DNA of 64,000 nt from Alphaproteobacteria bacterium (GTDB taxonomy: Bacteria > Pseudomonadota > Alphaproteobacteria > Holosporales > JBOFFI01), in contig JBOFFI010000041.1 in NCBI GenBank assembly GCA_051648545.1, positions 843 to 64,842 of the forward strand, written 5' to 3'. Positions 7,630 to 56,650 of this stretch are shown piece by piece. The stretch's first letter is position 1. Every line of letters starts with the position of its first letter. Both the position numbers and the translations under genes were made by a program. Under the pieces are notes generated by a model that worked only from the letters and a program-made list of their open reading frames with translations, was not told the origin of the DNA and did no database searches.

Positions 7630-8238
7630 TTCGTGGCTCCTTTTTATTATCTGTTCCTAGAAGAGGAAATACCTTGCCTCGTTTTTCTAAACAAAGAACT
7701 TATGTAAAATATTTTGCCAAAAATTATTTTTTTGTCTAGAGAAAAAAAATAATAATAAAAATTTTATAAATTTTTTTCTTTTTTCGACACATTTTCTTAA
7801 AAAAACCATCAAAAAGTCAAGCTTTTTTTCGGAAAAAATTGCCTTATTTTTTTTATGAAGCAAATTATCTTCTTCCAGGCAAGCAAAACTGACATGAAAA
7901 AATAGATTTTTTGGGCTTTAAAAAGATCGTGTTGCGCAAAATTATACCAAATCTCAGATTAATTGAGGCGAATGCGAATGCGAGGGCAAGGCGAGGTTTG
8001 GGCAAGCATACATGCGCAAAGGATCTAGGCCTGTCTCCAAAGGGGTTAAGCTTCTGCTCCATAACCGATTTCAGTAAGTGCATCTACCAATGCTTTGATG
8101 CTACCAGGGCCACAGGCTCTACTTTTATGGGGTTAAAAGGTTCCTCCGATGGTTTTACCTTATCATTTCAGCGCCCAGTGAGATCCACAGCTACGGTTAT
8201 CTGGAATCTCACCCCCAGGATGTTCCCTAAACGGTTAA

Positions 8239-8275
8239 ACAAAAGGGCAAAAGGGCAAAAGGGCAAAAAAGCAAA
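8239..8275. repeat. Short tandem repeat (CAAAAGGG)x3 plus degenerate copies
   Basis: Read directly: aacaaaagggcaaaagggcaaaagggcaaaaaagcaaag, inside a ~760-bp non-coding gap. Confidence 0.9.
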
Positions 8276-8387
8276 GAAAAATCTGTTTAATTTCATGAGT
8301 CTATTAAATCCAAAAAATAATAAAAAACTAGAACATTAACTGCTTTTAAAGCACAGGAGAAACATGAAAAAGGATATGAAGGCCAAT

Positions 8388-8945: not shown

Positions 8946-9157
8946 CTTTATACCAATTTTTAAACAAACAATCCAAGTACCATAGATAAAAAAAATATCT
9001 ATAAAAGACATTTTAAATAGCACCTTTGAAACATTAGACAATTTTGAATGTTTGGATCTCCTCAGCGTGTCCTTCTTGTGTTCTGGCTAGATTCATGGCA
9101 GAAAGGGGGAGAAGAGAATCCAAGTCTTGTACAAAAAATAAAGGGCCACTTTTACAG

Positions 9158-11974
9158 ATGGAAAAAGACTACCGCGCTACCATTTTTTTACCCCAGACGC
9201 CCTTTCCTATGAAGGCTGGCCTTCCTCAAAAAGAGCCCCAATTGCTGGCATTTTGGGAAGTTTTTCAGCTTTCTCAGAAACAACACAACGCCCGGGTTGG
9301 TGCGCCTAAATTTGTACTGCATGATGGTCCCCCTTATGCCAATGGCCACCTCCACATGGGCCACGCTGTAAACAAGATCTTGAAAGACGTTACCAACCGA
9401 AGCCAATTTATGCTGGGCAAAGATGTTGTGTTTGTTCCGGGGTGGGACTGTCACGGGCTGCCCATTGAATGGAAGGTAGAAGAAGCTTACCGGGAAAAGG
9501 GCAAGAAAAAAGAAGCTGTGGACCCCCTTGAGTTCCGCCAAGCCTGTCGTGCGTTTGCCCAGACGTGGCTGGAGATTCAGCGGAGGGAGTTTCAGCGCTT
9601 GGGCCTTATGGGGGATTGGGAAAATCCCTATAGCACCATGGATTTTAAAGCGGAGGCTTCCATTGTTGCGCAGTTTCTTGCGCTCGTCGAAAAAGGTTAT
9701 GTCTACCGAGGTGTTAAGCCTGTTTTGTGGTCTGTTGTTGAAGGGACTGCCCTTGCGGAAGCAGAGGTGGAATACCAAGAGGTGACCTCCCCCTCCCTTT
9801 ACGTGCGCTTTCTTTTTAAGAAATTGCCAGAAGCCATGGAGGCTGCGCTGGGAACGCTTCAAGGTTCCGCTGTCATTTGGACGACAACGCCGTGGACTTT
9901 GCCTGGAAACAGAGCCATTGCCTACCACCCCAATCTTAACTACGTCTTGCTCCACGTCCAAGCCGTGACCCAAGAAGCAAGGGTTGATGTGGGAGAGGTG
10001 CTGCTTTTGGCAGAAGATCTCGTGCCGTCTTTTAAGGAAGCCGTTGGCTTGCAAGAGGCTACGGTTTTGAGCACCTGCACGGGCGCCTCTTTGGAAGGAG
10101 CCGTGTGTCATCATCCGTTGGCTGATGCTGGTTATGGCGTGGAGGTGCCCCTTCTGCCTGGCGACCACGTCACCGCAGACACGGGGACGGGGCTTGTGCA
10201 TACGGCGCCGGGGCATGGGTTGGAAGATTTTGAGGTGGGAAAACGCTTTGGGTTAGAGATTTCTGAAACCGTCATGGCGGACGGGGTATTTGTGGATGCG
10301 CTTCCCGTTGTGGGGGGTGCGCATGTTTATAAGGCAAACCCTTTGGTGATTGAGGCCCTGAAAGCTGCGGGAACCCTCGTGTCAAAAAAACCGCTGCGCC
10401 ATAGCTATCCCCACTCCTGGCGTTCTAAAACACCCCTTATTTACCGCACGACGTCCCAGTGGTTTGTGTCCATGGATGGGGAAGGAAAGCTTCGGGAAAA
10501 GGCCCTCAAAGCCATTGAAGCGGTGGCGTGGCACCCCCCTCAGGCCAAAAATCGCATTAAAGCCATGGTGGAAGGGCGACCCGATTGGTGTTTATCTCGC
10601 CAACGGGCCTGGGGGGTTCCCCTCACGCTGTTTGTGCATAAACAAACCCAGACCTTGCTCCAAGACTCCCGGGTCAACCAACGCATCCTTGAGATTATCC
10701 GTCAAGAGGGAACCGAAGCCTGGTTTTCGTCCTCTCCTCAGCGTTTCTTGGAGCCTTTCCATAACCCTCAAGATTATGAAAAAGTGACAGATATTCTGGA
10801 TGTATGGTTTGATTCTGGCGTAACCCATGCCTTTGTTTTGCGGGATAGGCCAGAGCTCCAGTGGCCAGCTTCTCTTTACCTGGAGGGGTCTGACCAACAC
10901 CGCGGATGGTTTCAATCTTCTTTGCTGACGGCTTGCGCGCTCCACGACCAAGCGCCTTACCAGAGCGTGGTTACCCATGGGTTTGTGGTGAATGACCAAG
11001 GCCATAAAATGTCAAAGTCTGCGGGCAATGCAACCTCTCCCCAACAGCTAACAGATGAGCTTGGGGCAGACCTATTGCGCCTGTGGGTAGTTTCTGTGGA
11101 CAGCCAAGAGGACATGCGCATTGGTCCTGACATTTTGAAGCATCTGCAAGACCTCTATCGCCGCCTGCGCAATACATTACGCTATTTGTTGGGAGCAGTA
11201 GACGGTTTTTCGGCAGAAGAAGCGATTCCCTTTGAAGAAATGCCAGAGCTGGAGCAGTGGGTATGCCATCGCCTCAAATCTCTGGACACTGAATTGCGTA
11301 AGGCCTATGAAGGCTATCGTTTTCAATCTGTTTTTCAAGAAATTCATCATTTTTGCGCGGTAGATTTATCGGCTTTTTACCTAGATCTGCGTAAGGACAG
11401 TCTTTACTGTGATGCTGCCTCAACACTGAGGCGCCGCGCGGCCCGCACCGTGATGCTCAAGGTTTTGGAATGCCTCTGCCAATGGCTTGCCCCTTTGCTT
11501 CCCTTTACCACAGAAGAAGCTTGGCAGGCCTTTAAAGGACCTGAGTCCAGCGTCCACCTGGAGACATTTTCAGCCTTGCCGGATGCGTGGCTGCAGCCAG
11601 CTCTTGGCGAAACATACCAAACGCTGCGTTACCTACGCCAGGTGGTAACCGGCGCGCTGGAGCTGGCCAGAGCGGGCAAAAAAATAGGATCTAGCCTTCA
11701 AGCATCAGTCACGGTTTGCCTCCGCCCGAACTACCAACCTGTCCTCCAGCATCTTGATTTTGCAGAATTTTGTCTGACTTCTGAGGCAAATTTGGTGTGG
11801 ACTGAAACCATCCCCGCTGACGCTTACCAGCTTTGTGACGTTGAAGGCATGGGCGTAAGTGTTGAAATGGCTTCCGGTGAAAAATGTCTCCGTTGCTGGA
11901 AGGTATTGCCCGAAGTAGCCCAAAACACCGGCAAGCTTTGTAAGCGATGTGAAAGAGCTGTAGAGCGACTGTAG
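9158..11974 (+). CDS. ileS: Isoleucine--tRNA ligase
   Basis: PPYANGHLHMGH (HIGH), KMSKS, and a C-terminal zinc knuckle CLRCWK...CKRCERAV. The ORF opens at 9044, but the ATG at 9158 (MEKDYRATIFLPQTPFPMKA) fits the conserved IleRS N-terminus. Confidence 0.93.
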   Translation: MEKDYRATIFLPQTPFPMKAGLPQKEPQLLAFWEVFQLSQKQHNARVGAPKFVLHDGPPYANGHLHMGHAVNKILKDVTNRSQFMLGKDVVFVPGWDCHGLPIEWKVEEAYREKGKKKEAVDPLEFRQACRAFAQTWLEIQRREFQRLGLMGDWENPYSTMDFKAEASIVAQFLALVEKGYVYRGVKPVLWSVVEGTALAEAEVEYQEVTSPSLYVRFLFKKLPEAMEAALGTLQGSAVIWTTTPWTLPGNRAIAYHPNLNYVLLHVQAVTQEARVDVGEVLLLAEDLVPSFKEAVGLQEATVLSTCTGASLEGAVCHHPLADAGYGVEVPLLPGDHVTADTGTGLVHTAPGHGLEDFEVGKRFGLEISETVMADGVFVDALPVVGGAHVYKANPLVIEALKAAGTLVSKKPLRHSYPHSWRSKTPLIYRTTSQWFVSMDGEGKLREKALKAIEAVAWHPPQAKNRIKAMVEGRPDWCLSRQRAWGVPLTLFVHKQTQTLLQDSRVNQRILEIIRQEGTEAWFSSSPQRFLEPFHNPQDYEKVTDILDVWFDSGVTHAFVLRDRPELQWPASLYLEGSDQHRGWFQSSLLTACALHDQAPYQSVVTHGFVVNDQGHKMSKSAGNATSPQQLTDELGADLLRLWVVSVDSQEDMRIGPDILKHLQDLYRRLRNTLRYLLGAVDGFSAEEAIPFEEMPELEQWVCHRLKSLDTELRKAYEGYRFQSVFQEIHHFCAVDLSAFYLDLRKDSLYCDAASTLRRRAARTVMLKVLECLCQWLAPLLPFTTEEAWQAFKGPESSVHLETFSALPDAWLQPALGETYQTLRYLRQVVTGALELARAGKKIGSSLQASVTVCLRPNYQPVLQHLDFAEFCLTSEANLVWTETIPADAYQLCDVEGMGVSVEMASGEKCLRCWKVLPEVAQNTGKLCKRCERAVERL

Positions 11975-12120
11975 AATTTACCCGCCAGCAGAGAAAAACG
12001 CGAAAGGAGAGGAACCCTTGTGCTCCCCTTTTCGCACCCCCTTGAGGAAGCCACAAGCTGTGCTATAGTAAGGAAGAATTAGACAAACAAAAACGCCCCA
12101 GCAGGAAGGGAACAGCCATC

Positions 12121-13479
12121 ATGCAAGAAGGTGGACTCAAAGCCCCCACACGCCACCCTATCCCTTGGCAAGAGGCTTCTTTTTATGATGAAGAGGCTTT
12201 GGAGGTCGAAACACGACGCATCTTTGATATCTGCCATGGGTGCCGTCGGTGCTTCAACCTGTGCGACAGCTTTCCCAGACTTTTTGACTTGATTGATGAT
12301 GCTCCCAGCGGGGAGCTAGACACGGTTCCCGCGGAATCGTTTCGAAAGGTCACAGACGCTTGCACCCTTTGCGATATGTGCTTTATGGTGGCCTGCCCCT
12401 ATGTGCCCCCCCACGAATTTAACGTTGATTTTCCCCACCTGATGCTGCGCCACCGGGCGGTTCAGCACCAAGCGGGGAAAACCCCTTGGGCAGCTCAACA
12501 ACTGGCTTCTACAGATCGCAACGGAAAGCTGGGGACGGCGCTTCCTGACCTCAGCAATTGGGTAACCAAGGCCGAAAACACGCTAACCCGGCCCTTGTTG
12601 GAGAAAACCTTAGGGGTCGACCGCCGGGCTCATCTGCCGACTTTCGCGTCTCAGCCCTTTGCAAAAGCCCTGGCCCAACAGCCAGCCCCTCCAAACCCTA
12701 AAGCCCCTGGCTTTGGGGAAAAGGCTGTGCTCTATGCCACGTGTTATATGAGCTATAACGACGTCCAAACGGGACTCGCAGCGCGGGCTGTGCTGGCTCA
12801 TAACGGCGTTCAGCTGGAGGTAGTGTACCCTGAATGCTGTGGAATGCCCCAGCTGGAACAAGGTAACCTGGGGGACGTAGCGCGAAAAGCGGAGGCCATC
12901 ACACAGGCCCTTTTGCCTTGGGTGGAACAAGGCTATACGGTGGTGCCGCTGGTGCCATCTTGCACCCTGATGATACGCCAAGAGTGGCCCCTGCTGCTGC
13001 CTGAAAACCCAGTTGTCGAGCACGTGGCTCAGCATACCCGAGATTTATCTGAATTTTTAGTAAACCTCTCCAAGATCAAAGGCTTCATAGACGGACTGAC
13101 GCCCCTGGAGGCTCCCGTCACCCTGCATATGGCCTGCCATGCAAGGGCTCAAAATAAGGGCCGTCAGGCAGAGCTGTTGCTGAAGCTGATTCCAGGGATT
13201 GTGTTGAAAGTGGTGGAGCGATGCTCAGGCCACGGTGGCACCTGGGGGATTTTTAAAGAAAATTTTGACACAGCCGTAAAAGTTGGGAAGCCTGCCACCA
13301 AGCAAATCCTCCAAACCCCAGCTGAAGGCTTTGTGGTTTCAGAGTGCCCCCTAGCTTTGAGCCACCTAGAACAGATATGTGATCTAGAGGCTCAAAAAGC
13401 GCCGTCTATTTCTGCCGCTCAAAAACACTTTACCCATCCTATTCACTTGATTGCCCGTGCTTATGGGCTTAATACATAA
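12121..13479 (+). CDS. (Fe-S)-binding protein with two 4Fe-4S ferredoxin motifs and two CCG domains (GlpC/HdrD/GlcF-like)
   Basis: 452 aa. CHGCRRCFNLCDSFP and CTLCDMCFMVACPYVPP, then the CCG-type motifs YPECCGMP and ERCSGHGGTWG. Confidence 0.75.
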   Translation: MQEGGLKAPTRHPIPWQEASFYDEEALEVETRRIFDICHGCRRCFNLCDSFPRLFDLIDDAPSGELDTVPAESFRKVTDACTLCDMCFMVACPYVPPHEFNVDFPHLMLRHRAVQHQAGKTPWAAQQLASTDRNGKLGTALPDLSNWVTKAENTLTRPLLEKTLGVDRRAHLPTFASQPFAKALAQQPAPPNPKAPGFGEKAVLYATCYMSYNDVQTGLAARAVLAHNGVQLEVVYPECCGMPQLEQGNLGDVARKAEAITQALLPWVEQGYTVVPLVPSCTLMIRQEWPLLLPENPVVEHVAQHTRDLSEFLVNLSKIKGFIDGLTPLEAPVTLHMACHARAQNKGRQAELLLKLIPGIVLKVVERCSGHGGTWGIFKENFDTAVKVGKPATKQILQTPAEGFVVSECPLALSHLEQICDLEAQKAPSISAAQKHFTHPIHLIARAYGLNT

Positions 13480-13489
13480 GGATTAATCT

Positions 13490-14077
13490 ATGACCAAAGC
13501 TTTTACACCTGCTGATATTCTGCCCCTGGATATTTATGAACAGCAACGCCCTGAAAAGCGTTTAGAGATTCTGGAGCTCAAGAAAAATCGCCGGGTGCAC
13601 GTGGGTCCCTACGCTGTGTTTTTATTTGAAAATGCGGAAACCCTTTGGTTGCAAATCCACGAAATGCTGCGCATTGAAAAGGGAGGAAACGCACAGCTTG
13701 AAGATGAGCTCCGGGCCTATAATCCCCTCCTTCCCCAGGGGAATGATCTGGTAGCCACCCTCATGCTGGAGATTTCAGATGCTGCTGAGCGTAAAGCGCT
13801 CCTCGCCCAATGGGGTCATCTAGAAGAAACGGTTTTTCTGCAGGTGGGAGATTTTTCTGTTCAAGCTCGCTCCGTAGACACGGAAGAACGCACAGATCCG
13901 TCTGGAAAAACCTCCTCCGTACACTTCCTCCGATTTTCGTTTGATGCGCAAGCCAAGCTTGCTTTTTTGAAGGGGAGCGCACCTATCAGCCTGCGCATCG
14001 CTCACCCGGGCTATACGCATCAAGCGCTCATCCCCCAAGCAGTTCATGAAGCTTTGTGCAAGGATCTGATATCGTAA
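13490..14077 (+). CDS. DUF3501-family protein (recurrent partner of CCG-domain Fe-S proteins)
   Basis: 195 aa, 10 nt downstream of the Fe-S gene. I assigned the family from memory of its N-terminal pattern (ILPLDIYEQQRPEKRLEILELKKNRRVHVGPYAVFLFEN), not from a search. Confidence 0.55.
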   Translation: MTKAFTPADILPLDIYEQQRPEKRLEILELKKNRRVHVGPYAVFLFENAETLWLQIHEMLRIEKGGNAQLEDELRAYNPLLPQGNDLVATLMLEISDAAERKALLAQWGHLEETVFLQVGDFSVQARSVDTEERTDPSGKTSSVHFLRFSFDAQAKLAFLKGSAPISLRIAHPGYTHQALIPQAVHEALCKDLIS

Positions 14078-14080
14078 AAA

Positions 14081-14115
14081 AAGACCCCAAAGCGGTCTTC
14101 GGGGTCTTATATTTT
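14081..14115 (+). terminator. Rho-independent terminator after the Fe-S/DUF3501 pair
   Basis: Stem aagacccc (14081-14088) pairs with ggggtctt (14101-14108), followed by atatttt. Confidence 0.75.
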
Positions 14116-14519
14116 GGTAACAAAGATTTTACAGCACCCTGCGCCCTTAATCGCTTTAAGATTTAGCTGTAAAAAGCTCTGGTTTTATGCCATGAGCGCT
14201 TTAAAGTGGCTTCGGTTTGCAGAGGTTCAATTTTTTATCACAAGAGGTTGTTGGTAAAAGCTTGCTTTTTAAATCCCAATTTTGCTAGAATAAATCCTGC
14301 GTTAAGGGTGTTGGTTTTAGGGAAGGGTTTTCATTAAGGCGTATTCATGCAGGTTTTTGCAGGTTGGTCCTTTGGAGAGTCTTGAAAATTTATAGGCAGG
14401 AAAAATTAGGTGGAGAAACCGTTAATCTGTGAACTGGGCACGTTTTACTTCAATCATTTTTCTCGCAAATTAGGCGCAGTGTCGAAGTTTTAGCCAAGCA
14501 TCGTTGAGAGGGGTTTGTT

Positions 14520-16961
14520 TTGTCGAAGTCCATTCCGTTTGAGTTGCCTTTGGGCACGGTCTATCCGGTTTTGCCATTGCGAGACGTGGTGGTCTTTCCC
14601 CATATGGTCGTCCCTTTGTTTGTGGGAAGGGATAAATCTATCCGTGCTATTCAATCTGTAGCTGGTGAGGGAAAGCCCATCTTGCTGGTCACCCAAAAGC
14701 GATCAAATTTGGATGATCCGACAACGAGTGATCTTTATTCTGTAGGTACGATCGGCCAGGTTTTGCAGATTTTGAAGATGCCTGACGGAACAGTTAAAGC
14801 CTTGATTGAAGGTAAGCAGCGGGTTAAGATTCTGCGTTACACAGAGGCGCATGACTATTTTGAAGCCTATGCAGATGTTTTAGAAGATGAGCCTGAAGAA
14901 GTCCAAGAAGATTTGGAGCCCCTTCGGCGCACACTTTTGAAAGAATTTGAGAGCTATGTGAAGCTCAATAAGCGTAAACCTGCAGAGATTCTATCACCTG
15001 TTTCCCAATTGACAGATACGTCTAAGCTTGCAGACACCGTTGCATCCCACATTCCTTTGAAAATTGATCTAAAGCAGAATATTTTAGAAAAGCTCAAAGT
15101 TTCTCAGCGGATTGAGCTAATCATAGGTTATGTCAATACTGAGATTGAATTATTTAAAGCGGAAAAACGCATTCAAAACAGGATTCGCAACCAGGTTGAG
15201 CAGAATCAACGAGAATATTATCTGACGGAGCAGCTGAAGGCGATTCAAAAAGAGCTTGGAGAATCTGACGAAGCTCGGGATGAATTGCGGGAGCTGGAGG
15301 AGCGGATCGAAAAGACAAAGCTTTCCAAGGAAGCTAAAGAACGCGCTAAATCTGAGCTTAAAAAGCTTAAGAACATGAACCCCATTGCAGCAGAAGCGAC
15401 AGTGGTTCGGAATTATCTAGATTGGCTGCTTTCTATTCCTTGGGATAATCGGACAAAAGTCCGTAAAAATCTCTCAAAAGCTGAAGCTATTTTGAACGAA
15501 GACCACTACGGCCTTGAGAAAGTTAAAGAACGAATTTTAGAATTTTTAGCTGTTCAGACCCGAGTTGATAAAGTGAAGGGGCCCATTTTGTGTTTAGTAG
15601 GTCCTCCAGGCGTGGGAAAAACATCCCTGGGAAAATCTATTGCTAAAGCAACGGGACGCCAATTTGTGCGTATTTCCGTAGGCGGCTTACGGGACGAATC
15701 TGAGATTCGAGGACACCGCCGGACGTACATTGGCTCAATGCCGGGCAAGATTGTCCAAGGCATGCGGAAAGCGAAGTCTTCCAACCCTCTCTTTTTGTTA
15801 GATGAGATTGACAAAATGGGTTCGGACTGGCGCGGGGACCCTTCTTCAGCGTTGTTGGAGGTGCTGGACCCGGAACAAAACACCGCGTTCAATGATCACT
15901 ATTTAGAGGTAGACTATGACCTCTCAGATGTCTTGTTCGTGACCACGGCTAATAGCTTGAATATGCCTCTTCCGCTTTTGGACCGGATGGAGATCATTCG
16001 TATCTCTGGTTATACGGAAGATGAAAAAGTTGTCATTGCGCAACGTCACTTGGTTCCTAAACAGCGAGAACTTCATGGATTGAAAGAGGATGAATTTTCT
16101 ATCAGTGAAGAAGGTCTAAGAATCCTGATTCGCAAATATTGCCGTGAATCAGGCGTTCGAAACCTGGAACGTGAGATTGCAAGCCTTTCTAGAAAAGCGG
16201 TTAAAAGCATTGTGCTGAAGAAGGTAGATCACCTCAAATTGACCAAAACAAATCTTGAGAAATATGCAGGTATCCCTCGATATCGTTTTGAGGAGGCAGA
16301 CCTTACAGATTTGCTGGGCATTACCACAGGCCTTGCCTGGACAGAGGTGGGGGGAGAGCTTCTTTCTATTGAGGCGGTGATGCTTCCTGGGAAGGGCAAA
16401 ATCATGACGACGGGTAAGCTGGGAGAGGTGATGCAGGAATCTATCCAAGCAGCATCTAGCTTTGTGCGTTCCCGAGCTGCGGCTTATGGCATCAAGCCAA
16501 CCTTATTTGAGAAAAAAGATATTCACGTTCACGTACCTGAAGGAGCGACGCCGAAAGACGGGCCTTCAGCCGGTGTTGCCATGTGCACATCTATTGTTTC
16601 AGTTTTGACGGGCATTCCCGTTAAGGGGAACGTAGCCATGACAGGAGAGATCAGCTTGCGAGGACGCGTACTTCCCATTGGTGGCTTAAAAGAAAAGCTG
16701 TTGGCAGCCCACCGTGGAGGCATCAAAGAAGTCTTGATCCCAGAAGAAAATCTAAAAGATCTTGAAGAAATCCCAGAAAACGTGAAAAAAGGCCTGCGGA
16801 TTATCCCAGTTGCTAAAGTGGATGAGGTATTGGAGCATGCTCTGGTTCGTAAGTTCACACCAATTGAGTGGATAGACGAAAATCTGGGGGACCATCTTGT
16901 AACAAACGTTTCGACGGGAGGGGGAACCCCTGTTATCGAGCCATCTCCCACGACCCATTAG
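14520..16961 (+). CDS. lon: ATP-dependent Lon protease
   Basis: 813 aa with a TTG start. LON N-domain ([22 protein letters not shown]), Walker [10 protein letters not shown], and the protease site DGPSAGVAM. Confidence 0.95.
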
Positions 16962-16989
16962 GTTTTGCAAAAAGGTTGAGAGATATCTT

Positions 16990-17730
16990 TTAAAGCGTGG
17001 TTGGGCAGAAATGTCGCGCTATATACATCATAGGGGTATGTAAGAGTAAAATCAGTGCCCTGATGGTATAAGCGCCCAAAATATAGCTCCACCAAAGGGT
17101 ATTCCAGTCCATGGGTGTGGAGGCAAAAACCACCCAGGCTAGGAGGCTGAAGATAACGTGATCTACAAATCCAGACACAAGATTTGAAAGGCTTGTGCGA
17201 AACCACAGGTGTTGCCCCTTTGTCAGACGCTTAAGCGCTGCAAAAATCCAAATATCATTATACTGGCTCACCATATAAGCCAGCAGGCTTGCTGCAACAA
17301 GGGAAGGAACGGGCAAGAAAATCTTTTCCATGGCGTCCTGTATCCCTGCTTGACAGGGGATTGGCGCTTTTGGATGCGCCACTGTTATCAACATCCAAAC
17401 CATAAAAAGAATCAAAGCGCCAAAATGGATCCAGATGGCTTTCTTGGCTTTTTCAGCTCCATAAAACTCTGTCAATATATCACTGCATAAATAGAGGGAA
17501 CTGAATACAATGGTCCCCAGGGCAACGGGTTCAGGAAAATAATCACAAGGAGAAATTTTTAAAACTTGGAGGGTAGCGGTGATGATGGCAAGCACGCCAT
17601 AGGCAACAATCCCAAACGCCCCCCATAACCTAAAAGCAAGCAGCAAAGCCATATTTGAGATTAAAAATGTCAAAATCATGAGGGTTTCTGAAGAAAAAGG
17701 CAGGTTTGAAAAGAGGATTGGTGAAAACAT
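16990..17730 (-). CDS. yhhQ: Queuosine-precursor transporter, YhhQ/VUT (DUF165) family
   Basis: 246 aa polytopic membrane protein. YMVSQYNDIWIFAALKRLTKGQHLWFRTSLSNLVSGFVDHVIFSLLA matches the YhhQ pattern (Q..D...F..L....W.R...S......D...F). Confidence 0.65.
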   Translation of the reverse strand: MFSPILFSNLPFSSETLMILTFLISNMALLLAFRLWGAFGIVAYGVLAIITATLQVLKISPCDYFPEPVALGTIVFSSLYLCSDILTEFYGAEKAKKAIWIHFGALILFMVWMLITVAHPKAPIPCQAGIQDAMEKIFLPVPSLVAASLLAYMVSQYNDIWIFAALKRLTKGQHLWFRTSLSNLVSGFVDHVIFSLLAWVVFASTPMDWNTLWWSYILGAYTIRALILLLHTPMMYIARHFCPTTL

Positions 17731-17905
17731 AAAGCTCTTTTTAAGAAAAAAAATAAAAAAACCCCTAACGATGGGATTGACGTGGATTAACTTTCCTCGC
17801 TAGTATGCAGAAAAAGGCCGTTCTTGGGAATAGGCCGTGGAAAAAGTTTGGGTAATTGGCCTTTTTCCACTTGGAAGATAATTAAAGGAAATAACGAAAA
17901 GGATC

Positions 17906-18184
17906 ATGGCCGTGAATAAAGAAGATTTAGTTACAGAAGTTGCAAATGCTGCTGGGATATCTAAAACAGATACACGAAGCGTTATTGACGCTTTTATTAA
18001 CGTTGTTACAGACGTACTTAAAAGAAATGACGATGTTCGCTTGGTTGGCTTTGGAACTTTCCTCGCCACGCACCGAAAGGAATCTGAGGGTCGTAACCCT
18101 CGGACCGGTGAGAAAATTAAAATTAAAGCTGCAAAAGTTCCTAAGTTTAGACCAGGAAAACAACTAAAAACACTCATCAACTAA
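17906..18184 (+). CDS. hupB: Nucleoid protein HU
   Basis: 92 aa. MAVNKEDLV...VRLVGFGTF...RKESEGRNPRTGEKIKIKAAKVPKFRPGKQLK. Confidence 0.95.
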   Translation: MAVNKEDLVTEVANAAGISKTDTRSVIDAFINVVTDVLKRNDDVRLVGFGTFLATHRKESEGRNPRTGEKIKIKAAKVPKFRPGKQLKTLIN

Positions 18185-18542
18185 GACCATTTTTAAAAAT
18201 ACCTTCTCATGTAGAAGTGATTTGGCAGCATGCCTTTAGTTATCTTGGTTGAAGCTTTTGTTATTGTCACGAGCGCTGAAAAACTATTAACCTTACGTAT
18301 GTTTTAGGGGATTCATAGGTTGAGTTACTTGCACGCGCTCGTTGACGGTTCCCAACTTTAGGGACAGTAAAAAAATAGAAGATTGAGGTAAGCGCTTTAA
18401 GGCATGGGAATGCAAAGAAAAAAATACTTAATTTATATGGCTTGGTGATTTGCGTGGGTTTGGTGCTTGTATCTGGACTAGCTTTTTTAAAAAAAATCAA
18501 CTAGAATGAGACTATCTTGCCCTAAAAGAGGTTGTTGAAGCG

Positions 18543-18725
18543 GTGTCTTTTTGTTTTATGCTAACCGCAATGATTTTAGTTTTGGCTTCCCTCGTTGGGG
18601 GGCTTTTTCTTTTTGGACGTAGTTCGCCAGAAGCTTCCGCCAAAGGACAGATGCTGATGCGCTTGAGAGTTCTTTTTCAAGGCGCTGCGCTGCTTTTTTT
18701 TCTGATCGCTGTGAGCTTGGGTTGA
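18543..18725 (+). CDS. Twin-transmembrane-helix small protein (HIG1-like), putative
   Basis: 60 aa (GTG start; an alternative ATG at 18558 gives 55 aa). Two hydrophobic helices flank QMLMRLRVLFQGAAL, which resembles the HIG1 motif common in alphaproteobacteria. Confidence 0.5.
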   Translation: MSFCFMLTAMILVLASLVGGLFLFGRSSPEASAKGQMLMRLRVLFQGAALLFFLIAVSLG

Positions 18726-18852
18726 TTACGTTACGCTTAAAATTTTTTTTCGCGGGATCTTTTTCCCTTACTTCTTAAAGCGCAAGCCCCAACGTGGCTT
18801 TGATGGCTATGTTCATTCACCCTAACCCTGTTCTATTTACTCATGAGGATCT

Positions 18853-19110
18853 ATGCTGATGTATGATTTTGTTTCGATGACATTTGAGAAAGCTCTACAC
18901 GAGATGGAGGAACTCATCAATTTGATGGAGAACCCTCAAACAACGTTGGAAGAGGCTATTCTGGCTTATGAAAAAGGAGCAAGTCTTAAGCATTTTTGTG
19001 AAGGTGAGTTGAAAAAAGCCCGGCTGCGGGTTTCTCAAATCAATATTGCCCAAGATGATCAGCTGGACCTTCAACCATTTGATATGGCATTGCGTGGGGG
19101 AACTGCGTGA
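18853..19110 (+). CDS. xseB: Exodeoxyribonuclease VII small subunit
   Basis: 85 aa. FEKALHEMEELINLMENPQTTLEEAILAYEKGASLKHFCEGELKKARLRV. Confidence 0.85.
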   Translation: MLMYDFVSMTFEKALHEMEELINLMENPQTTLEEAILAYEKGASLKHFCEGELKKARLRVSQINIAQDDQLDLQPFDMALRGGTA

Positions 19111-48333: not shown

Positions 48334-49361
48334 GTTGATGCGCCGTACTCCCGAATGTTTCGAATTAATTCACCGATATGTTCCAACGGTGTTTGGGGTA
48401 GCATGCCATGACCCAGGTTGAAAATAAAAGGTGTTTTTTCCATGGTCTTGATAATGAGGTTCGTTTGTTCTTTTAAAAGGCTACCACCTGCTAATAACAC
48501 AGATGGGTCTAGATTCCCCTGAATGATGCAGGGAAGGTTTTTTATCTCTTCCAAAGGAACCGAAAAATCAACGGATAAACCATCTACCTGGGTAGTGGCT
48601 TGGTAAGCTTTGAGAGCGAAAACACCAAGCCCTTTCGGGAAACCAATGATAGGAACCGTTGGATAACGAGACTTTAGAAAACGAGAAATCTGTTGGGTAG
48701 GCTTCAAAATCCAAGGCTCAAAAAAGGGAGCAGGCACCAAGTGTGCCCAGCTTTCAAAAAGTTGAATCACGTGAACCCCGGATTGTATTTGGCGTTCCAG
48801 GTAGCGCGTTGTCAATAAGGTGAGATGGTCCAGAATCTGTTGAAATAGGTTGATATCTTTAAAAATAGAGCTTTTTGCCTGGTGAAAATCTTTCGAGCTC
48901 GCTTGTTCCAGCATGTAAAGCGCTACCGTCCAAGGAGCTCCAGCGAATCCAATCAACCCAACCTTTTCAGGAAGTTTTATCTGTATTTGCTGGATCGCAT
49001 CAAAAACTGGCTCAAGCTTTTTTTCTATCGACTCAAATGTCTGTTCCAAAAAATGAGAGATTTGAAGTGACGACAAACAGGGGCCTTGCTTTTCTTTAAA
49101 CGTTACGTTTTGACCACATACTGAGGGAAGAAGCAGAATATCTGAAAAAAGAATCGCCGCATCCATCTCAAATCGACGTATGGGTTGAAGCGTTGCTTCG
49201 CAGACCGCCTCAGGGTTTAAGCAAAATGAGATGAAATCTGGAAAACGGCTTCGCAGACTTATATATTCTGGTAAAGATCGCCCAGCCTGGCGCATAAACC
49301 ACACGGGTGGAGATTCTAAAACTTTTTTTTGAAAAGGGTTAAGAATGGTCTTAGAAAGCAT
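48327..49361 (-). CDS. hemE: Uroporphyrinogen decarboxylase
   Basis: 344 aa. PPVWFMRQAGRSLPEY, ILFSDILLLP, HGMLPQTPLEHI. Overlaps hemH by 7 nt. Confidence 0.92.
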   Translation of the reverse strand: MLSKTILNPFQKKVLESPPVWFMRQAGRSLPEYISLRSRFPDFISFCLNPEAVCEATLQPIRRFEMDAAILFSDILLLPSVCGQNVTFKEKQGPCLSSLQISHFLEQTFESIEKKLEPVFDAIQQIQIKLPEKVGLIGFAGAPWTVALYMLEQASSKDFHQAKSSIFKDINLFQQILDHLTLLTTRYLERQIQSGVHVIQLFESWAHLVPAPFFEPWILKPTQQISRFLKSRYPTVPIIGFPKGLGVFALKAYQATTQVDGLSVDFSVPLEEIKNLPCIIQGNLDPSVLLAGGSLLKEQTNLIIKTMEKTPFIFNLGHGMLPQTPLEHIGELIRNIREYGASTC

Positions 49362-49575
49362 CTTTTTTCGAGTATCTCATATAATAAATATTTTTTTTAC
49401 TTTTATAAAAAAGAATAAAAAAAGGTGGTAATGGTTGTATATCCCTGTGGAATGTGTGGAGCTTTTTTTTTCCACACGTTTAACCACATGTTTTAATCAC
49501 CTTAAAACTATTTATTTCAAGAGAACAGAGAAAAAATCCACAGGCTGTGGATTTTTTTTAAAAACAAGAAAAATC

Positions 49576-49584
49576 TGTGGATAA
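49576..49584 (-). promoter_or_regulatory. Perfect DnaA box (TTATCCACA on the minus strand)
   Basis: The plus strand reads tgtggataa. Confidence 0.75.
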
Positions 49585-49642
49585 AATGTGGGTTATATTG
49601 AGGAAATTGTTAATTTTTTTTTATCCCCAATTTACCCCATTG

Positions 49643-49651
49643 TTATCCACA
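49643..49651 (+). promoter_or_regulatory. Perfect DnaA box (TTATCCACA)
   Basis: The plus strand reads ttatccaca, 13 nt from the flgL stop codon. Confidence 0.75.
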
Positions 49652-49663
49652 GATTTTTAAAGC

Positions 49664-50656
49664 TTAAGGTATAGATTTTATAAAATCTTCCAAAAATTTA
49701 ATCGTGTTGAAGGTAAGCGTATTGTTGATCATGATGGCCACTTTTAACAATTGATAATCTTGAAGCCCATCTAAAATATCTTGTCCTGCTATATCCCCCC
49801 AAGAATTTTTCGCTGCATTAATTTCATCTGAAAGGCCTTCATTAACATCTATAAAAATTTGCTCCATATGGCCGGTGTGGATAAGAAGCTCATCGTTAAG
49901 TTGGGCAATAGCTTCTACTAAGATATCTTCAACGGGCTCAAAATGTTTAGCGTTTTGGGGAGGGCCTAAGTCAATCAGCCTTGCTCCCCGGAAAGCACGG
50001 AAAGCTTTCTCAAAACACTCATGGTTAGCTTTTATTCGAAAATCAACTTTTTGGGTTTCTTTTTTTAACTTGATTTTCAAGGTCTCATCAGAGCCTTTAT
50101 AATAATCAAAATACGTTCTATTTTTAATATAATCAGGATTATCAATCCAAGTTCCAGGATTATTTTGGTCTTCTATCTGGGGTTCTAAGCTGTAATCTTG
50201 AGGGTAATCAGTCATGTCTACAGGTTTTTTATCCGTTCGGATTCCCGCAAAAATATAATTTCCGTAAACATCTTTTTGATTTAGTAATACAGTTAACTGG
50301 TATTCTAATTGTTGTAGGCGCTCTGGGAAACTGATAGTACTGTCGACAGCGGCGTTGTTGGCCCCCTTACACAGCACAAAAAAATCTTTTAGAACTTGGT
50401 TAGTCTGGTTTATAGCTATTTCATAGGGCTTTAATTCTGTAAGCAGAGATCTTTGGTTAAGCGATTCAAAGGAAAGCCCGATTTCTTTTTCAGCAAAAGA
50501 TGAAAGAACTATCTTTGTTTCTTTGGGTGCTTCTCCCCACTCTTCTGCTTTGTAACCTGTTGAAATCTTTACAACAGAAATGGAGAGCTCTGTCTGTTTT
50601 TTGGCGTTTTGACGTTGAAGACCATCAAAGGTGTGTCGAGTTGAAACGTGAAACAT
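49664..50656 (-). CDS. flgL: Flagellar hook-filament junction protein FlgL (HAP3), highly divergent
   Basis: 330 aa immediately downstream of flgK. The N-terminus MFHVSTRHTFDGLQRQNAKKQTELSISVVKISTGYK follows the FlgL/flagellin-N pattern (ST....Q.Q..L......STG). The rest is unrecognisable by eye. Confidence 0.55.
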   Translation of the reverse strand: MFHVSTRHTFDGLQRQNAKKQTELSISVVKISTGYKAEEWGEAPKETKIVLSSFAEKEIGLSFESLNQRSLLTELKPYEIAINQTNQVLKDFFVLCKGANNAAVDSTISFPERLQQLEYQLTVLLNQKDVYGNYIFAGIRTDKKPVDMTDYPQDYSLEPQIEDQNNPGTWIDNPDYIKNRTYFDYYKGSDETLKIKLKKETQKVDFRIKANHECFEKAFRAFRGARLIDLGPPQNAKHFEPVEDILVEAIAQLNDELLIHTGHMEQIFIDVNEGLSDEINAAKNSWGDIAGQDILDGLQDYQLLKVAIMINNTLTFNTIKFLEDFIKSIP

Positions 50657-50674
50657 GGCTTTAAGCTCCTATAA

Positions 50675-52459
50675 CTAAGCGTTCATCAATAATCGAGAAA
50701 TAAGATCGCTATTGCTTCTTAAAATATTGAAAACCCCCATCAAGGACTGAAGGTACATTTGGCAGAAGAGCAACGCCTGTATTTCATCTTGAATATTAGG
50801 TTGGGAAAAATTTTTGACTTCTTCTTCCAGAGCTTCAAAAAGGCTTTGTTCGCCTTCAAAGGTTGAAACAGCCTTGTCAGTTTGAATCGCAAAATCTTCT
50901 ATGGTATTTTGAACATAATTTAAGAGGCTATCTCCTTCAAACCTTGGAAGGAAGCCTGCTCTCTCGAATTCGATTTTTTTTTCAGATAAATCTTGCATCA
51001 GTTGGACCGTTTCTGCATCGCTTTTTTCCACAGCAATGCCATCTCCATAATCTGGGCCGTCTAGCCTTGAAAGGGTTCCACATTCAAAAAAATTTGGGTT
51101 TTCAGCATAATAGGGGTTAACATCTAAAACATTTGCAATGCCTGCAGCTCGAACACCATTCAAAAAATCTGGCGTTACAAAAAAATCTTGAAGCCCAATA
51201 AAGTGGGAAAGAGAGAGAGTGTTACCATCTGTTGTTTGAACACTGGAGGGAGGATCAAGATCAACAACGGCAATGCTGCAATTTGGGTCTATGCTTTCAA
51301 GCTGTACTTTATTTTCCGGTGTCATGGATGCCTTCATCGACGCAACAGCGTTAATGTTATCAAAGACATCTTGTAGTGTGGCGCAAGTGGTTAAATCAAG
51401 GTCTAAAACGTCCACAAAGGCTTTGGTTGTTTTATCAATGGTTGCAATTCGAATGATCCCTTGGGGATTTGTTAGAACTGTTGCAGCACCGTTTGGGAAA
51501 ATCTGAGTTCCAGTTTTTATTGACTGTAAATTATAGGATGTCCCGTTGTTATGGTATTTGTTCATCCACTCTCGCAATGTATAGGTAAATTCATCTAATT
51601 CTGCTTGGAGATTTGGCAGCGTTTCATCTCGCATTTTTAGAAGATTTCCAAGGGTTCCTAGTCCAAGTTTTTTAAGATCATCCGAGACGTCACAAATTTC
51701 AATTTCGATACCACTTAAATTCATTGACGAAGCCGAAATAAAGGAAGTACTCTCAAAATGAATTTCAGCTATAAAATTATCATGTACGAGAAGGTGACCG
51801 TCACAGTACAAGGAAAATCCACCATTACGCTCATTACATTCCACAATAGGCAAGTATTTTGAAATTTCGAAAGCTACGGCGTCCCTCTTGCTTTGAAGAT
51901 CTAAAGGATTTTTATCATAAAGCAATTTAATTTGTTTGTTTAAATCTGCGTATTCTTTCAGATTGGCCCTTAGCTCATCAATTTTTTTATAAATCTCCCA
52001 ATCAGCTTCTGAGCGAAGAGATTGTATTTTATTGGATATTTCTCGTATAGATGCGACAAGGGTTTGAGAGCTGATGACAACGCCTTGGATTAAGCCAATA
52101 TCATCAGGTCTCCTCGCCAAAGCATTCAGAGATGTAAAAACCTGGGTGAGGTAGTTTGATAGGTTATCTTCTCCAGCAAACCTTCCCAATGTGGGTTGAA
52201 TTTTTTCAAAATAAAGTGCTGAAATTTGGGTTCCTTCAAAGGCACTATTCTGCTTTTTATAGGCTTTGTGGAGCTGTTCATCGATAACTCGTTTAGGAAT
52301 GGTTCCTGTAACACCTGTTGTTCTTCCACTGGCTGTCACCGTTTTTCCTTGCATTTCGTGCCTACAAAAATCTGGATCTTGAGCAGAAGCGGTGTTGATA
52401 TTGTGTTCGTCTGAAAGCTTGGTTCCCAGCTTAAGACCTGTTGTAACCAGAGAAAACAT
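50675..52459 (-). CDS. flgK: Flagellar hook-associated protein FlgK (HAP1), divergent
   Basis: 594 aa. N-terminus MFSLVTTGLKLGTKLSDEHNINTASAQDPDFCRHE (compare the FlgK pattern M.L...GL......L......N.AN..T.GY.R). The C-terminus DEIQALLFCQMYLQSLMGVFNILRSNSDLISRLL resembles the conserved FlgK C-terminal helix. Position between the flgN-like gene and flgL. Confidence 0.65.
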   Translation of the reverse strand: MFSLVTTGLKLGTKLSDEHNINTASAQDPDFCRHEMQGKTVTASGRTTGVTGTIPKRVIDEQLHKAYKKQNSAFEGTQISALYFEKIQPTLGRFAGEDNLSNYLTQVFTSLNALARRPDDIGLIQGVVISSQTLVASIREISNKIQSLRSEADWEIYKKIDELRANLKEYADLNKQIKLLYDKNPLDLQSKRDAVAFEISKYLPIVECNERNGGFSLYCDGHLLVHDNFIAEIHFESTSFISASSMNLSGIEIEICDVSDDLKKLGLGTLGNLLKMRDETLPNLQAELDEFTYTLREWMNKYHNNGTSYNLQSIKTGTQIFPNGAATVLTNPQGIIRIATIDKTTKAFVDVLDLDLTTCATLQDVFDNINAVASMKASMTPENKVQLESIDPNCSIAVVDLDPPSSVQTTDGNTLSLSHFIGLQDFFVTPDFLNGVRAAGIANVLDVNPYYAENPNFFECGTLSRLDGPDYGDGIAVEKSDAETVQLMQDLSEKKIEFERAGFLPRFEGDSLLNYVQNTIEDFAIQTDKAVSTFEGEQSLFEALEEEVKNFSQPNIQDEIQALLFCQMYLQSLMGVFNILRSNSDLISRLLMNA

Positions 52460-52888
52460 TTAAAGGCTCCTTTGAATTCCAAAAAAAGGGGAAGGTGGCG
52501 TTGCAGAACTCAAATTACCCAATGAACCATATTTTGTTGTTTGAGAAGGTTCTTTCATCAATTCTATGACAGATTCAAGTTGGGTTTGCTTGGATTCTAA
52601 AAAATGTTTAAGCAGCGTTTGATTCAATTCCGTTTGATCTGCGAAGTATGTGGAGGCTTCTGCCCACGCCCGCTGCTTTTTAGGGTCCATCTCTTCAAAA
52701 GCGTGTGGATTTTTAACCAGCTCTTGCAACAAAGTTGCGTAAGTCTGAAAAAGAGTTCCTTTTTTTGCTTGAAGGCTTTCTAGACCTTTCAATTTTTCAA
52801 GGGCTATCATCTGATATTCTTCTTGAAAAATTTCCAGGATCTCTTTTTGTAAACTGGATAATTTTTCCGGCAAAGTATTCGTTTCCAT
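52460..52888 (-). CDS. FlgN-like flagellar export chaperone, putative
   Basis: 142 aa, predicted all-helical, Glu/Leu/Gln-rich. Its stop codon abuts the flgK ATG (taa-atg with no spacer). The call rests on size, composition and position only. Confidence 0.4.
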   Translation of the reverse strand: METNTLPEKLSSLQKEILEIFQEEYQMIALEKLKGLESLQAKKGTLFQTYATLLQELVKNPHAFEEMDPKKQRAWAEASTYFADQTELNQTLLKHFLESKQTQLESVIELMKEPSQTTKYGSLGNLSSATPPSPFFGIQRSL

Positions 52889-52893
52889 GGAAT

Positions 52894-53148
52894 CTATTTT
52901 CCTTGTTTCGTAAAATTCTCAGAAAATTCTTCAACAAAGGGCTCAAAGCTAGAAGATTCAGCCAAAGCCTTGCCCATCTCCTTTGACAACACGTAGGTGA
53001 CAAAAGAAGCGTGTGAAGACGCGCCGAATAAACCTTCTTCTTCGAAACAATCGAAAAGAGGACGAATCATTTGGGCAAGCTGCCCACCTAAAAGGTTTTC
53101 TGTTTTTTCATAAATAAGACTTGGAGAAGGTGGGGAAACTGAAAGCAT
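52894..53148 (-). CDS. flgJ: Rod-binding protein (FlgJ N-terminal-domain only; no muramidase domain)
   Basis: 84 aa, 1 nt after the flgI stop. LLGGQLAQMIRPLFDCFEEEGLFGASSHASFVTYVLSKEMGKALAES resembles the Rod_binding motif (F...fl.qMlk.M......g.......y......e.a..ia). Confidence 0.5.
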   Translation of the reverse strand: MLSVSPPSPSLIYEKTENLLGGQLAQMIRPLFDCFEEEGLFGASSHASFVTYVLSKEMGKALAESSSFEPFVEEFSENFTKQGK

Positions 53149-55747: not shown

Positions 55748-56515
55748 TCAAGTCCCTACGTTCTGAAGGCGATTTTTAGGCCTTCCGGATACAGGAGAGG
55801 AGGCCATATCTGGCGGAATTTTCACATATTCAGGGGATGAGGCAGGGTCTCGAAGGACATAACCACGGCCCCATACCGTTTCAATATAATTTTCTCCACC
55901 CAAAGCATCGCCCAGTTTTTTCCGGAGCTTGCAGACAAACACATCGATAATCTTGAGCTCGGGCTCATCCATACCACCATAAAGATGATTCAGGAAAATT
56001 TCTTTGCTGAGGGTTGAGCCTTTCCGTAAGACCAGCAATTCTAAAATCCCATATTCTTTCCCTGTAAGCTTTAGGGGAACCCCATCAACATCCGCCATAC
56101 GTGTTTGAAGGTTTACAGTCAGGCGGCCTGTCCGGATGATAGATTCGGCATGTCCCTTGGATCTGCGAACGATGGCTTGGATGCGAGCCAGAAGTTCTGC
56201 CTTGTTAAAAGGCTTGGTGAGGTAGTCATCAGCACCGAATCCGAGGCTTTTAATCTTATCTGAAACTTCTTGACGTCCTGAAAGAATCAAGATAGGTGTG
56301 GAAACGTTGGCACTCCTCAAACGACGCAGCACATCGTGACCGTCCATGTCTGGCAGCGTCAAATCAAGTAGGATGATGTCATAATCGTACAGCTTCCCGA
56401 TTTCCAGACCATCCTCTCCCATATCTGTCGTATCGCACACAAAACCTTCGGTTTTCAGGGCAAGTTCAATGGTTTTCGCAGTCGGTGTATCGTCTTCAAC
56501 TAGAAGGACTCTCAT
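55748..56515 (-). CDS. ctrA: Cell-cycle response regulator CtrA (OmpR family)
   Basis: 255 aa. Long near-identical stretches to Caulobacter CtrA as I remember it: [92 protein letters not shown]. Confidence 0.92.
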
Positions 56516-56650
56516 CCCTGTACTCCTTATTATTATTTATAGTTAATATCTATTAAAGCATATTTTTTCGACAACGTTAAGTGAAAAAACTAACGAAGCA
56601 TAAAACTGTTTCCATTGAGACGCAAAAAATAAAATTTAATGCGTTGAAAA

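Follow-up and report, generated by a model that had tools for sequence, protein, structure and literature searches.

A Predicted DnaA-Dependent Replication Origin Between hemE and a flgL-Like Gene in an Uncultured Alphaproteobacterium

Introduction

Adjacency to the hemE gene is an established hallmark of the chromosomal replication origins of alphaproteobacteria, in which the flank opposite hemE is variable (PMC1914354, PMC6393856). The subject of this report is a 302-bp intergenic spacer of 28% GC, located between hemE and a flgL-like gene at positions 49362-49663 of a 64-kb window (the whole stretch of DNA analysed), which belongs to the ~65.5-kb contig JBOFFI010000041.1 of an uncultured alphaproteobacterium assembled from metagenomes. 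A first-pass annotation of the window had proposed the spacer as the chromosomal origin, and this reading is supported by the density of DnaA boxes, by an unstable AT-rich tract, by a switch in strand asymmetry, by the conservation of the boxes, and by the joint displacement of the box module and the skew switch in a sister genome. Judged from these sequence features, the spacer very probably represents oriC, an origin at which DnaA would initiate replication of the chromosome and which belongs to the hemE-linked type of alphaproteobacteria, with an estimated probability of about 0.85.

The origin of Caulobacter crescentus, Cori, lies directly upstream of hemE and contains a DnaA-box cluster of a few hundred base pairs, in an organism that also possesses ctrA (PMC6393856, PMC1914354); the spacer shares these properties. 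Both loci also have an AT-rich region of ~40 bp on the hemE side. In Caulobacter a hemE promoter is located inside Cori and is required for replication (PMC6393856), and a candidate for such a promoter lies in the proposed unwinding region here. The two loci differ in that the boxes of Cori are only moderate (G) and weak (W), whereas two perfect and three one-mismatch consensus boxes were found here. Cori also contains five CtrA sites (TTAA-N7-TTAA), an integration host factor (IHF) site and GANTC methylation sites, none of which occur in the spacer, and its other flank is a DUF299/COG1806 gene in place of flgL.

The predicted origins of Rickettsiales (Rickettsia, Wolbachia, Ehrlichia, and Anaplasma) also have hemE as one boundary, the other being a COG1806 gene, a CBS-domain gene or a phage gene (PMC1914354). 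As in the present case, they are AT-rich spacers of 300-600 bp in which the few DnaA boxes have diverged less than the intervening sequence, with rearrangement or recombination breakpoints at the spacer edges (PMC1914354). They differ in having 2-4 TTATNCACA-type boxes and an IHF consensus site, whereas here the boxes are more numerous, are laid out in an inverted repeat and a palindrome, and are not accompanied by an IHF consensus; the organism studied here, with a GC content of ~45%, also appears to be flagellated. Because the flank varies among Rickettsiales (PMC1914354), the DUF299/COG1806 (RP001) neighbor is typical and not obligatory, and the flagellar flank, regarded in the first-pass annotation as an unusual context for an origin, does not constitute a problem. 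No DUF299/COG1806 gene was found in the window.

Some Rickettsiales origins have few or no CtrA sites (PMC1914354), and the chromosomal origin of another alphaproteobacterium, Sinorhizobium meliloti, lacks CtrA-binding motifs although CtrA is essential in that organism (PMC4433202); the likeness of the latter to the spacer is one of description, not of sequence. The Escherichia coli oriC also carries an AT-rich duplex unwinding element (DUE) at one end (PMC5742627). It differs by its GATC/SeqA system, 13-mer repeats, IHF site and other flanking genes, none of which are present here. In the E. coli origin, opposed consensus R-type boxes, TTATCCACA, bracket arrays of weaker sites, as they do in this spacer. 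The geometry of the hemE-proximal part of the spacer resembles that of the basal unwinding system of Bacillus subtilis and Helicobacter pylori, in which two boxes of the same orientation are followed by a few G-rich nucleotides, a 3-nt-periodic block and an AT tract (PMC8287927, PMC8235120).

Origins of this type are already known, and their current understanding is not overturned by this locus. What it adds are boxes of E. coli strength in nested inverted repeats, the lack of CtrA, IHF and methylation sites beside ctrA and flagellar genes, and a cassette separable from hemE. It would show where replication starts in an uncultured, deep-branching lineage of alphaproteobacteria, helping to orient and scaffold fragmentary assemblies and to interpret strand bias. 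It would also be a data point on the variation of alphaproteobacterial origins, with consensus-strength boxes and no CtrA, IHF or GANTC sites at a distance of 6 kb from ctrA.

Anatomy of the Spacer

The features of the spacer and its two boundary genes are listed in Table 1. The sites first proposed were recovered at the same positions, including the two perfect boxes in opposite orientation, the three one-mismatch boxes, the palindrome with its two inverted boxes (two mismatches each), and the TCCACA cores, which appear on the plus strand as TGTGGA at 49446-51 and 49455-60. The AT-rich tract was also recognized, with a different right end: near-pure A/T sequence extends over 49380-49423, and the earlier limits of 49381-49433 overshoot into ggtggtaat.

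Each arm of the ~90-bp inverted repeat contains one perfect box together with weaker boxes, and an A/T run occupies its centre. On the hemE side, the two abutting boxes are oriented towards the AT tract and are followed by GGG, by the periodic block and by the tract itself. The promoter-like site inside the tract, which agrees with the consensus at 9 of 12 positions in a consensus scan, may be the hemE promoter.

Table 1. Positions of candidate origin elements and boundary genes in the 64-kb window.
Feature	Position	Strand	Remarks
hemE, uroporphyrinogen decarboxylase	48327..49361	-	TIGR01464, 349.9 bits (cut-off 303); left boundary, transcribed away from the putative origin
AT-rich tract, proposed unwinding element (DUE)	49380..49423	.	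44 nt, 2 G/C
Promoter-like site, TTTATA, 17-nt spacer, TATTAT	49381..49409	-	Within the AT-rich tract; 20 nt before the hemE ATG
Putative portable origin module	49393..49663	.	Conserved as one unit in a sister genome without adjacent hemE
Block with 3-nt periodicity	49424..49438	-	ACA ACC ATT ACC ACC; between tandem boxes and AT tract; 8/15 positions invariant
Two abutting putative low-affinity boxes	49446..49463	-	AGCTCCACA then CATTCCACA; intact TCCACA cores; 4/9 and 6/9 positions invariant (6/9 for the box at 49446)
Two direct one-mismatch boxes	49468..49488	+	TTTTCCACA (49468-76) and TTAACCACA (49480-88); offset 12 bp; 7/9 and 3/9 positions invariant
Perfect palindrome, 27 nt	49531..49557	.	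AAATCCACA boxes at 49534-42 (+) and 49546-54 (-); flanks A6 and T6
Imperfect inverted repeat, ~90 bp	49569..49658	.	70% self-complementary; blastn reverse-strand self-match
Perfect DnaA box TTATCCACA	49576..49584	-	8/9 positions invariant in 7 genomes
Two-mismatch DnaA box TAACCCACA	49587..49595	-	Poorly conserved, 0/9 positions invariant
One-mismatch DnaA box TTATCCCCA	49621..49629	+	Retained in L001, L002, L008 and L011
Perfect DnaA box TTATCCACA	49643..49651	+	At the outer end of the inverted repeat's right arm; 8/9 positions invariant in 7 genomes
flgL-like, hook-associated protein	49664..50656	-	TIGR02550, E=2.5e-11, 43 bits (below cut-off); right boundary, transcribed towards the putative origin

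Neither the TTAA-N7-TTAA CtrA site nor its TTAACCAT half-site was found in the spacer or in the five orthologous spacers checked, where the loose TTWW-N7-TTWW matches correspond to T-runs. The IHF consensus WATCAANNNNTTR and its looser form WATCAN5WTR were also absent from the window's spacer and from the five orthologous spacers, and no GANTC occurred in any of them. A full CtrA site is present elsewhere in the window, at 25714, with TTAACCAT nearby, so the motif seems to be in use in the organism, only not at the proposed origin. GANTC is under-represented window-wide, with 166 occurrences compared to 217 +/- 12.5 in dinucleotide-preserving shuffles.

Box Density and Duplex Stability

The accumulation of DnaA boxes in the spacer far exceeds chance. 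With at most one mismatch, five boxes occur in 302 bp compared to 0.10 expected from composition-matched shuffles of the spacer, and with at most two mismatches there are eight compared to 1.36, values not attained in any of 5000 shuffles in either case. The spacer is the top 300-bp window for box density in the whole 64 kb, the runner-up being the start of uvrC with three boxes, and it holds 7 of the 49 TCCACA cores in 0.5% of the window's length. It also has the highest AT content (72%) among the intergenic regions of the window, and nearest-neighbour free energies place there both the least stable 40-bp duplex (49379-49418) and the least stable 50-bp duplex (49373-49422), each ranking first of ~64,000 positions.

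An AT-rich gap of 758 bp at 7630-8387, which coincides with the minimum of raw skew and with a gene-strand switch, was considered as another origin candidate and rejected, since it contains no box with one mismatch or less and a single TCCACA core. This gap has no open reading frame (ORF), no DnaA boxes and no Rfam match, and carries a short GGGCAAAA-type repeat at ~8244-8275.

Conservation in Relatives

The spacer was compared with those of five hemE-linked relatives spanning 92-56% hemE identity. L001 and L002 (92 and 89% DNA identity) were obtained from a species-genome scan, and L008, L009 and L010 (76, 62, and 56% hemE identity to the window, respectively) from a protein search combined with contig look-ups. 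A metagenome scan for hemE relatives yielded only 38%-identical loci, and in the protein search no match from outside its small lineage exceeded 49% identity to hemE. The order flgL-spacer-hemE is maintained in L001, L002, L008 and L009, and a different gene lies upstream in L010. In all five, a spacer of 300-390 bp upstream of hemE contains 4-6 boxes with at most one mismatch, which constitute the sole such cluster in each relative's contig. As a loose control, three sphingomonad hemE loci (L003, L005, and L006) showed 1-3 near-consensus boxes upstream of hemE, a result that neither helps nor hurts the interpretation.

Identity of the spacer to the window is 91% in L001, 93% in L002 and 75% in L008, on par with whole-gene identity and well above that of third codon positions (80-87% for L001/L002 and 51-55% for L008). 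Conservation is concentrated in the boxes. When ten boxes were defined from the window alone, 44 of their 90 positions (49%) were invariant in a seven-genome alignment, compared to 32 of the 181 positions (18%) elsewhere (Fisher p=1.5e-7). The most conserved elements are the two perfect boxes, followed by TTTTCCACA at 49468, the tandem box at 49446 and the periodic block (Table 1). The box at 49643-51 reads TTCTCCACA in L001 and L002, and the equivalents of the abutting boxes at 49446-63 carry two and two mismatches in L008 and three and one in L010.

A Sister Genome with the Module Parted from hemE

The genome GCA_051657245.1, with ~87% DNA identity to the window, has the box module and hemE on separate contigs. 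Colinearity of the hemE contig L007 (JBOFKI010000004) with the window extends from typA to hemE and stops 8 bp before the hemE ATG; beyond the breakpoint the whole spacer is lost, and its place is taken by 980 bp of unrelated sequence in which a single box occurs. Genes for phasin and ompA come next. On the flgL contig L011 (JBOFKI010000095), the entire module is located directly after flgL and retains the AT tract, ACAACCATTACCACC, the palindrome and the perfect, direct and tandem boxes, two of each kind. The segment L011:10994-11265 aligns to window positions 49393-49663 and then diverges, so that part of the AT tract (49393-49423) is present without hemE. The module now adjoins the sbt transporter gene, which lies at 31 kb in the window.

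The asymmetry between strands follows the module. Plus-strand genes of L011 have a mean skew at third codon positions (GC3 skew) of ~-0.13 to the left of the module and ~+0.27 to its right, and no skew change was found upstream of hemE in L007. Since the module is intact without hemE and the skew switch moves with it, it behaves as an autonomous selected unit rather than as a hemE control region. The rule of finding the origin by finding hemE can thus fail between genomes with ~13% DNA divergence, as the module can detach intact.

The junctions of sbt with a gene for a 186-amino-acid protein, and of a methyltransferase gene with ctrA, are reciprocal to those of the window. These two junction changes fit an inversion of the segment from ctrA through flgL and the module to sbt, which spans the module; the rest of the arrangement needs further rearrangement. 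Misassembly of the metagenome-assembled genome could in principle have produced the L007/L011 arrangement, yet the junctions are reciprocal and consistent on two contigs. Breakpoints are found at both edges of the module in this genome (L007:9021-10000 and L011:10994-11410), and the replacement sequence L007:9021-10000 contains REP-like palindromes ttcccgcggaagcgggaatc around 9305 and 9385.

Strand Asymmetry in the Window

Raw GC skew was discarded as an origin marker, as it is ambiguous, with a cumulative minimum near 8 kb, and follows gene orientation. GC3 skew of 51 genes was instead fitted with a constant, gene orientation and the side of a breakpoint, and all breakpoints between genes were scanned. 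The best single breakpoint was at 49512, inside the spacer, with a side coefficient of +0.128 that accounted for 47% of the residual variance and was not matched in 2000 permutations of gene order. AT skew gave a breakpoint likewise at the spacer (21 of 2000 permutations), and those of total GC skew and AT3 skew fell at 47.3 kb, at a distance of two genes (0 of 2000 permutations each).

From left to right of the spacer, the plus strand passes from C-rich and A-rich to G-rich and T-rich. GC3 skew rises from -0.11 to +0.08 in minus-strand genes, and from +0.03 to +0.28 in plus-strand genes. A change from negative to positive indicates the polarity of an origin, not that of a terminus.

In the block at 9044-19979 (ileS ... 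lon ... ispA), orientation-corrected GC3 skew is shifted by +0.13 to +0.18 compared with the remainder of the left flank. Such a shift would be expected of a block that until recently lay on the opposite replichore or was inverted, and it is the highly expressed genes of this block that would now be head-on. Longer assemblies of this organism or a nearly identical one, a contig of 253 kb and a Logan contig of 70.8 kb (ERR14374427), both encode a Lon protein identical to that of the window and could widen the skew profile.

Possible Mode of Initiation

Judged from the anatomy of the spacer, DnaA would be bound constitutively to the consensus boxes at 49576-84 and 49643-51, which face each other in the 90-bp inverted repeat. 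ATP-DnaA would next fill the weaker boxes, which comprise those of the palindrome, the direct pair at 49468-88 and the abutting TCCACA pair at 49446-63. The latter may guide the growth of a DnaA oligomer, which would extend from them over the 3-nt-periodic block. The AT tract would then be melted by the oligomer, and helicase loading there would allow two forks to depart from what may be the sole origin of the replicon. The putative hemE promoter lies in the region predicted to melt, and hemE transcription may aid opening, as in Caulobacter.

The periodic block at 49424-38 is a candidate DnaA-trio-like element. In L010, the block reads CTA CTA CTA CCA CTA and begins 4 bp after GTATCCACA, CTA being the complement of the 3'-GAT-5' DnaA-trio. 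The rule applied asks for three or more NAN trios (3'-GAT-5' consensus) adjoining AT-rich DNA, with a box of no more than two mismatches lying within 16 bp of them; L010 conforms to it. The neighbouring T-run fits NAN trivially, so that the rule discriminates poorly here. The orientation of the trios relative to the boxes was taken from PMC8235120 and from the B. subtilis sequence.

Alternative Explanations

Several observations weigh against an origin at this position. The skew step is lopsided, its replication component being ~-0.05 to the left of the spacer and ~+0.21 to the right; the composition of the 9-20 kb block (ileS, lon) resembles that of leading-strand plus-strand DNA, and a skew step can also mark the endpoint of an inversion. 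Only 23 of the 51 genes, with 40% of the coding bases, would be co-directional with forks departing from 49.5 kb, compared to 60% with the plus strand taken as leading throughout; the caution raised in the first-pass annotation, that ileS, lon and rpsA would be transcribed head-on, therefore stands. The boxes closest to the AT tract have three mismatches in the window, the periodic block read in the CTA frame (ATA CAA CCA TTA CCA) has the key trio base in 2 of 5 repeats with canonical trios absent, and the CtrA and IHF sites are missing as described above. No DnaA domain was detected among the window's ORFs of at least 150 amino acids, in line with the earlier remark that dnaA lies outside the window, and the dnaA locus was not seen. 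Finally, the skew tests cover the 64-kb window and 21 kb of the sister genome, and the box scans the window and the related contigs, in each case a portion of the replicon.

One rival reading is a DnaA-binding locus that is not an origin, either a site serving in titration or reactivation, like datA and DARS (PMC5742627), or a DnaA-controlled promoter, the real origin being elsewhere. The absence of a leading-strand gene bias around the site is consistent with such a locus, as are the limits of the evidence to a window that excludes the dnaA neighbourhood and the presence of a second, weaker box cluster at the start of uvrC. Box clusters outside oriC do occur in other bacteria, but ten boxes or cores in 220 bp exceed the number in known titration sites. 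Regulation of hemE is countered by the module remaining intact after its detachment from this gene. With the skew switch coinciding with the module in two gene arrangements, the least stable duplex of the window abutting the boxes, and a hemE synteny as in known alphaproteobacterial origins, a non-origin DnaA-binding locus is considered unlikely.

Ordinary intergenic control DNA, consisting of a flgL terminator or 3' untranslated structure plus a hemE promoter with incidental box matches, would account for three properties. The palindrome resembles an intrinsic terminator on the minus (flgL) strand; the transcript downstream of flgL is predicted to fold far more stably than shuffles (z=-7.9), with the ~90-bp repeat as a long hairpin; and a promoter-like site lies within the AT tract. 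Compensatory covariation in the alignment was however essentially nil, with such changes in 2 of 31 pairs and a covariation term that was unfavourable, and L009 has lost the flgL-proximal palindrome arm (49546-54), while the box on the arm nearer to hemE (49534-42) is retained in all genomes. The lack of compensatory changes, together with the loss of an arm in L009 with its box kept, suggests that the constraint acts on the boxes and not on a hairpin, and the reading of the inverted repeats as RNA structure was rejected as unsupported by covariation. An Rfam scan of the window detected two tRNAs only and no RNA family in the spacer. Hairpins would also leave unexplained the exact DnaA consensus in the arms and the direct and tandem boxes outside them, and the AT tract persists in L011 without hemE. 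Control DNA is thus a very improbable explanation of the whole, although an origin may at the same time act as terminator or promoter, and the palindrome or inverted repeat possibly has a secondary function as terminator or insulator.

Hardly credible, and the least probable of the three, is an origin belonging to a secondary replicon or an integrated mobile element instead of the main chromosome. The lower GC content (36-39%) of the right-hand flagellar block and the rearrangement of the region between sister genomes would be in keeping with it. The flanks, however, carry single-copy core genes, ileS, lon, rpsA, gltX, ftsW, hemE and hemH on the left and ftsK, tatC and tig on the right; none of the genes found was of the rep, par, integrase or transfer type, and the linkage to hemE is common to relatives down to 56% identity.

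Within the preferred interpretation as a hemE-linked chromosomal origin, a more specific proposal can be considered, which is rather unlikely. The origin would be a self-contained cassette of ~270 bp having the flgL-flgK-flgI-ctrA block, not hemE, as its stable partner, the palindromic box pair would double as the flgL terminator, and rearrangements centred on the origin would break preferentially at the edges of the cassette. If this were true, DnaA occupancy would be coupled to read-through from the flagellar/ctrA block into the origin, providing a CtrA-site-free tie of initiation to the cell-cycle and motility programme.

Flanking Genes and Additional Observations

To the left of the spacer, the minus strand encodes hemE, hemH, a hemJ-like gene, gltX, ftsW/rodA and truA. 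To the right, the same strand carries flgL, flgK, two small ORFs, flgI, a gene for an AmpD-like amidase, and ctrA; beyond ctrA, the plus strand contains ftsK, lolA, tatC, a tRNA-Leu, tig, and clpP, the last assigned by synteny with L011 only. The assignment of flgL, in spite of its weak NCBIfam match, is based on its position after flgK and on the JGI name FlgL of a 78%-identical homologue. One small ORF between ctrA and the spacer corresponds to bolA by synteny with L008/L011 only. The GC content of the flagellar genes right of the spacer (49000-53000) is 36-39%, compared to a window average of ~46%.

The weaker box cluster at the start of uvrC (window 25481-26139) is also present in L012, and all of its boxes are on the plus strand: a perfect TTATCCACA at 25885, TTATGCACA at 25663, TTATCCAAA at 25970 and TTATACACA at 26131. 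The divergent glycosyltransferase/uvrC spacer contains the full CtrA site TTAATTGTTTTTTAA at 25714-28; GATTC occurs there at 25736 and the half-site TTAACCAT near 25755. From these motifs, the uvrC-start region looks like a promoter region under the control of CtrA and possibly of DnaA.

The ctrA gene (55748-56515) was identified by NF045991 with 388 bits (cut-off 350) and is located 6 kb from the module. Its strand is head-on to the rightward fork, and within the region 55748-57059 the spacer upstream of ctrA carries three GANTC sites, at 56763, 56838 and 56887.

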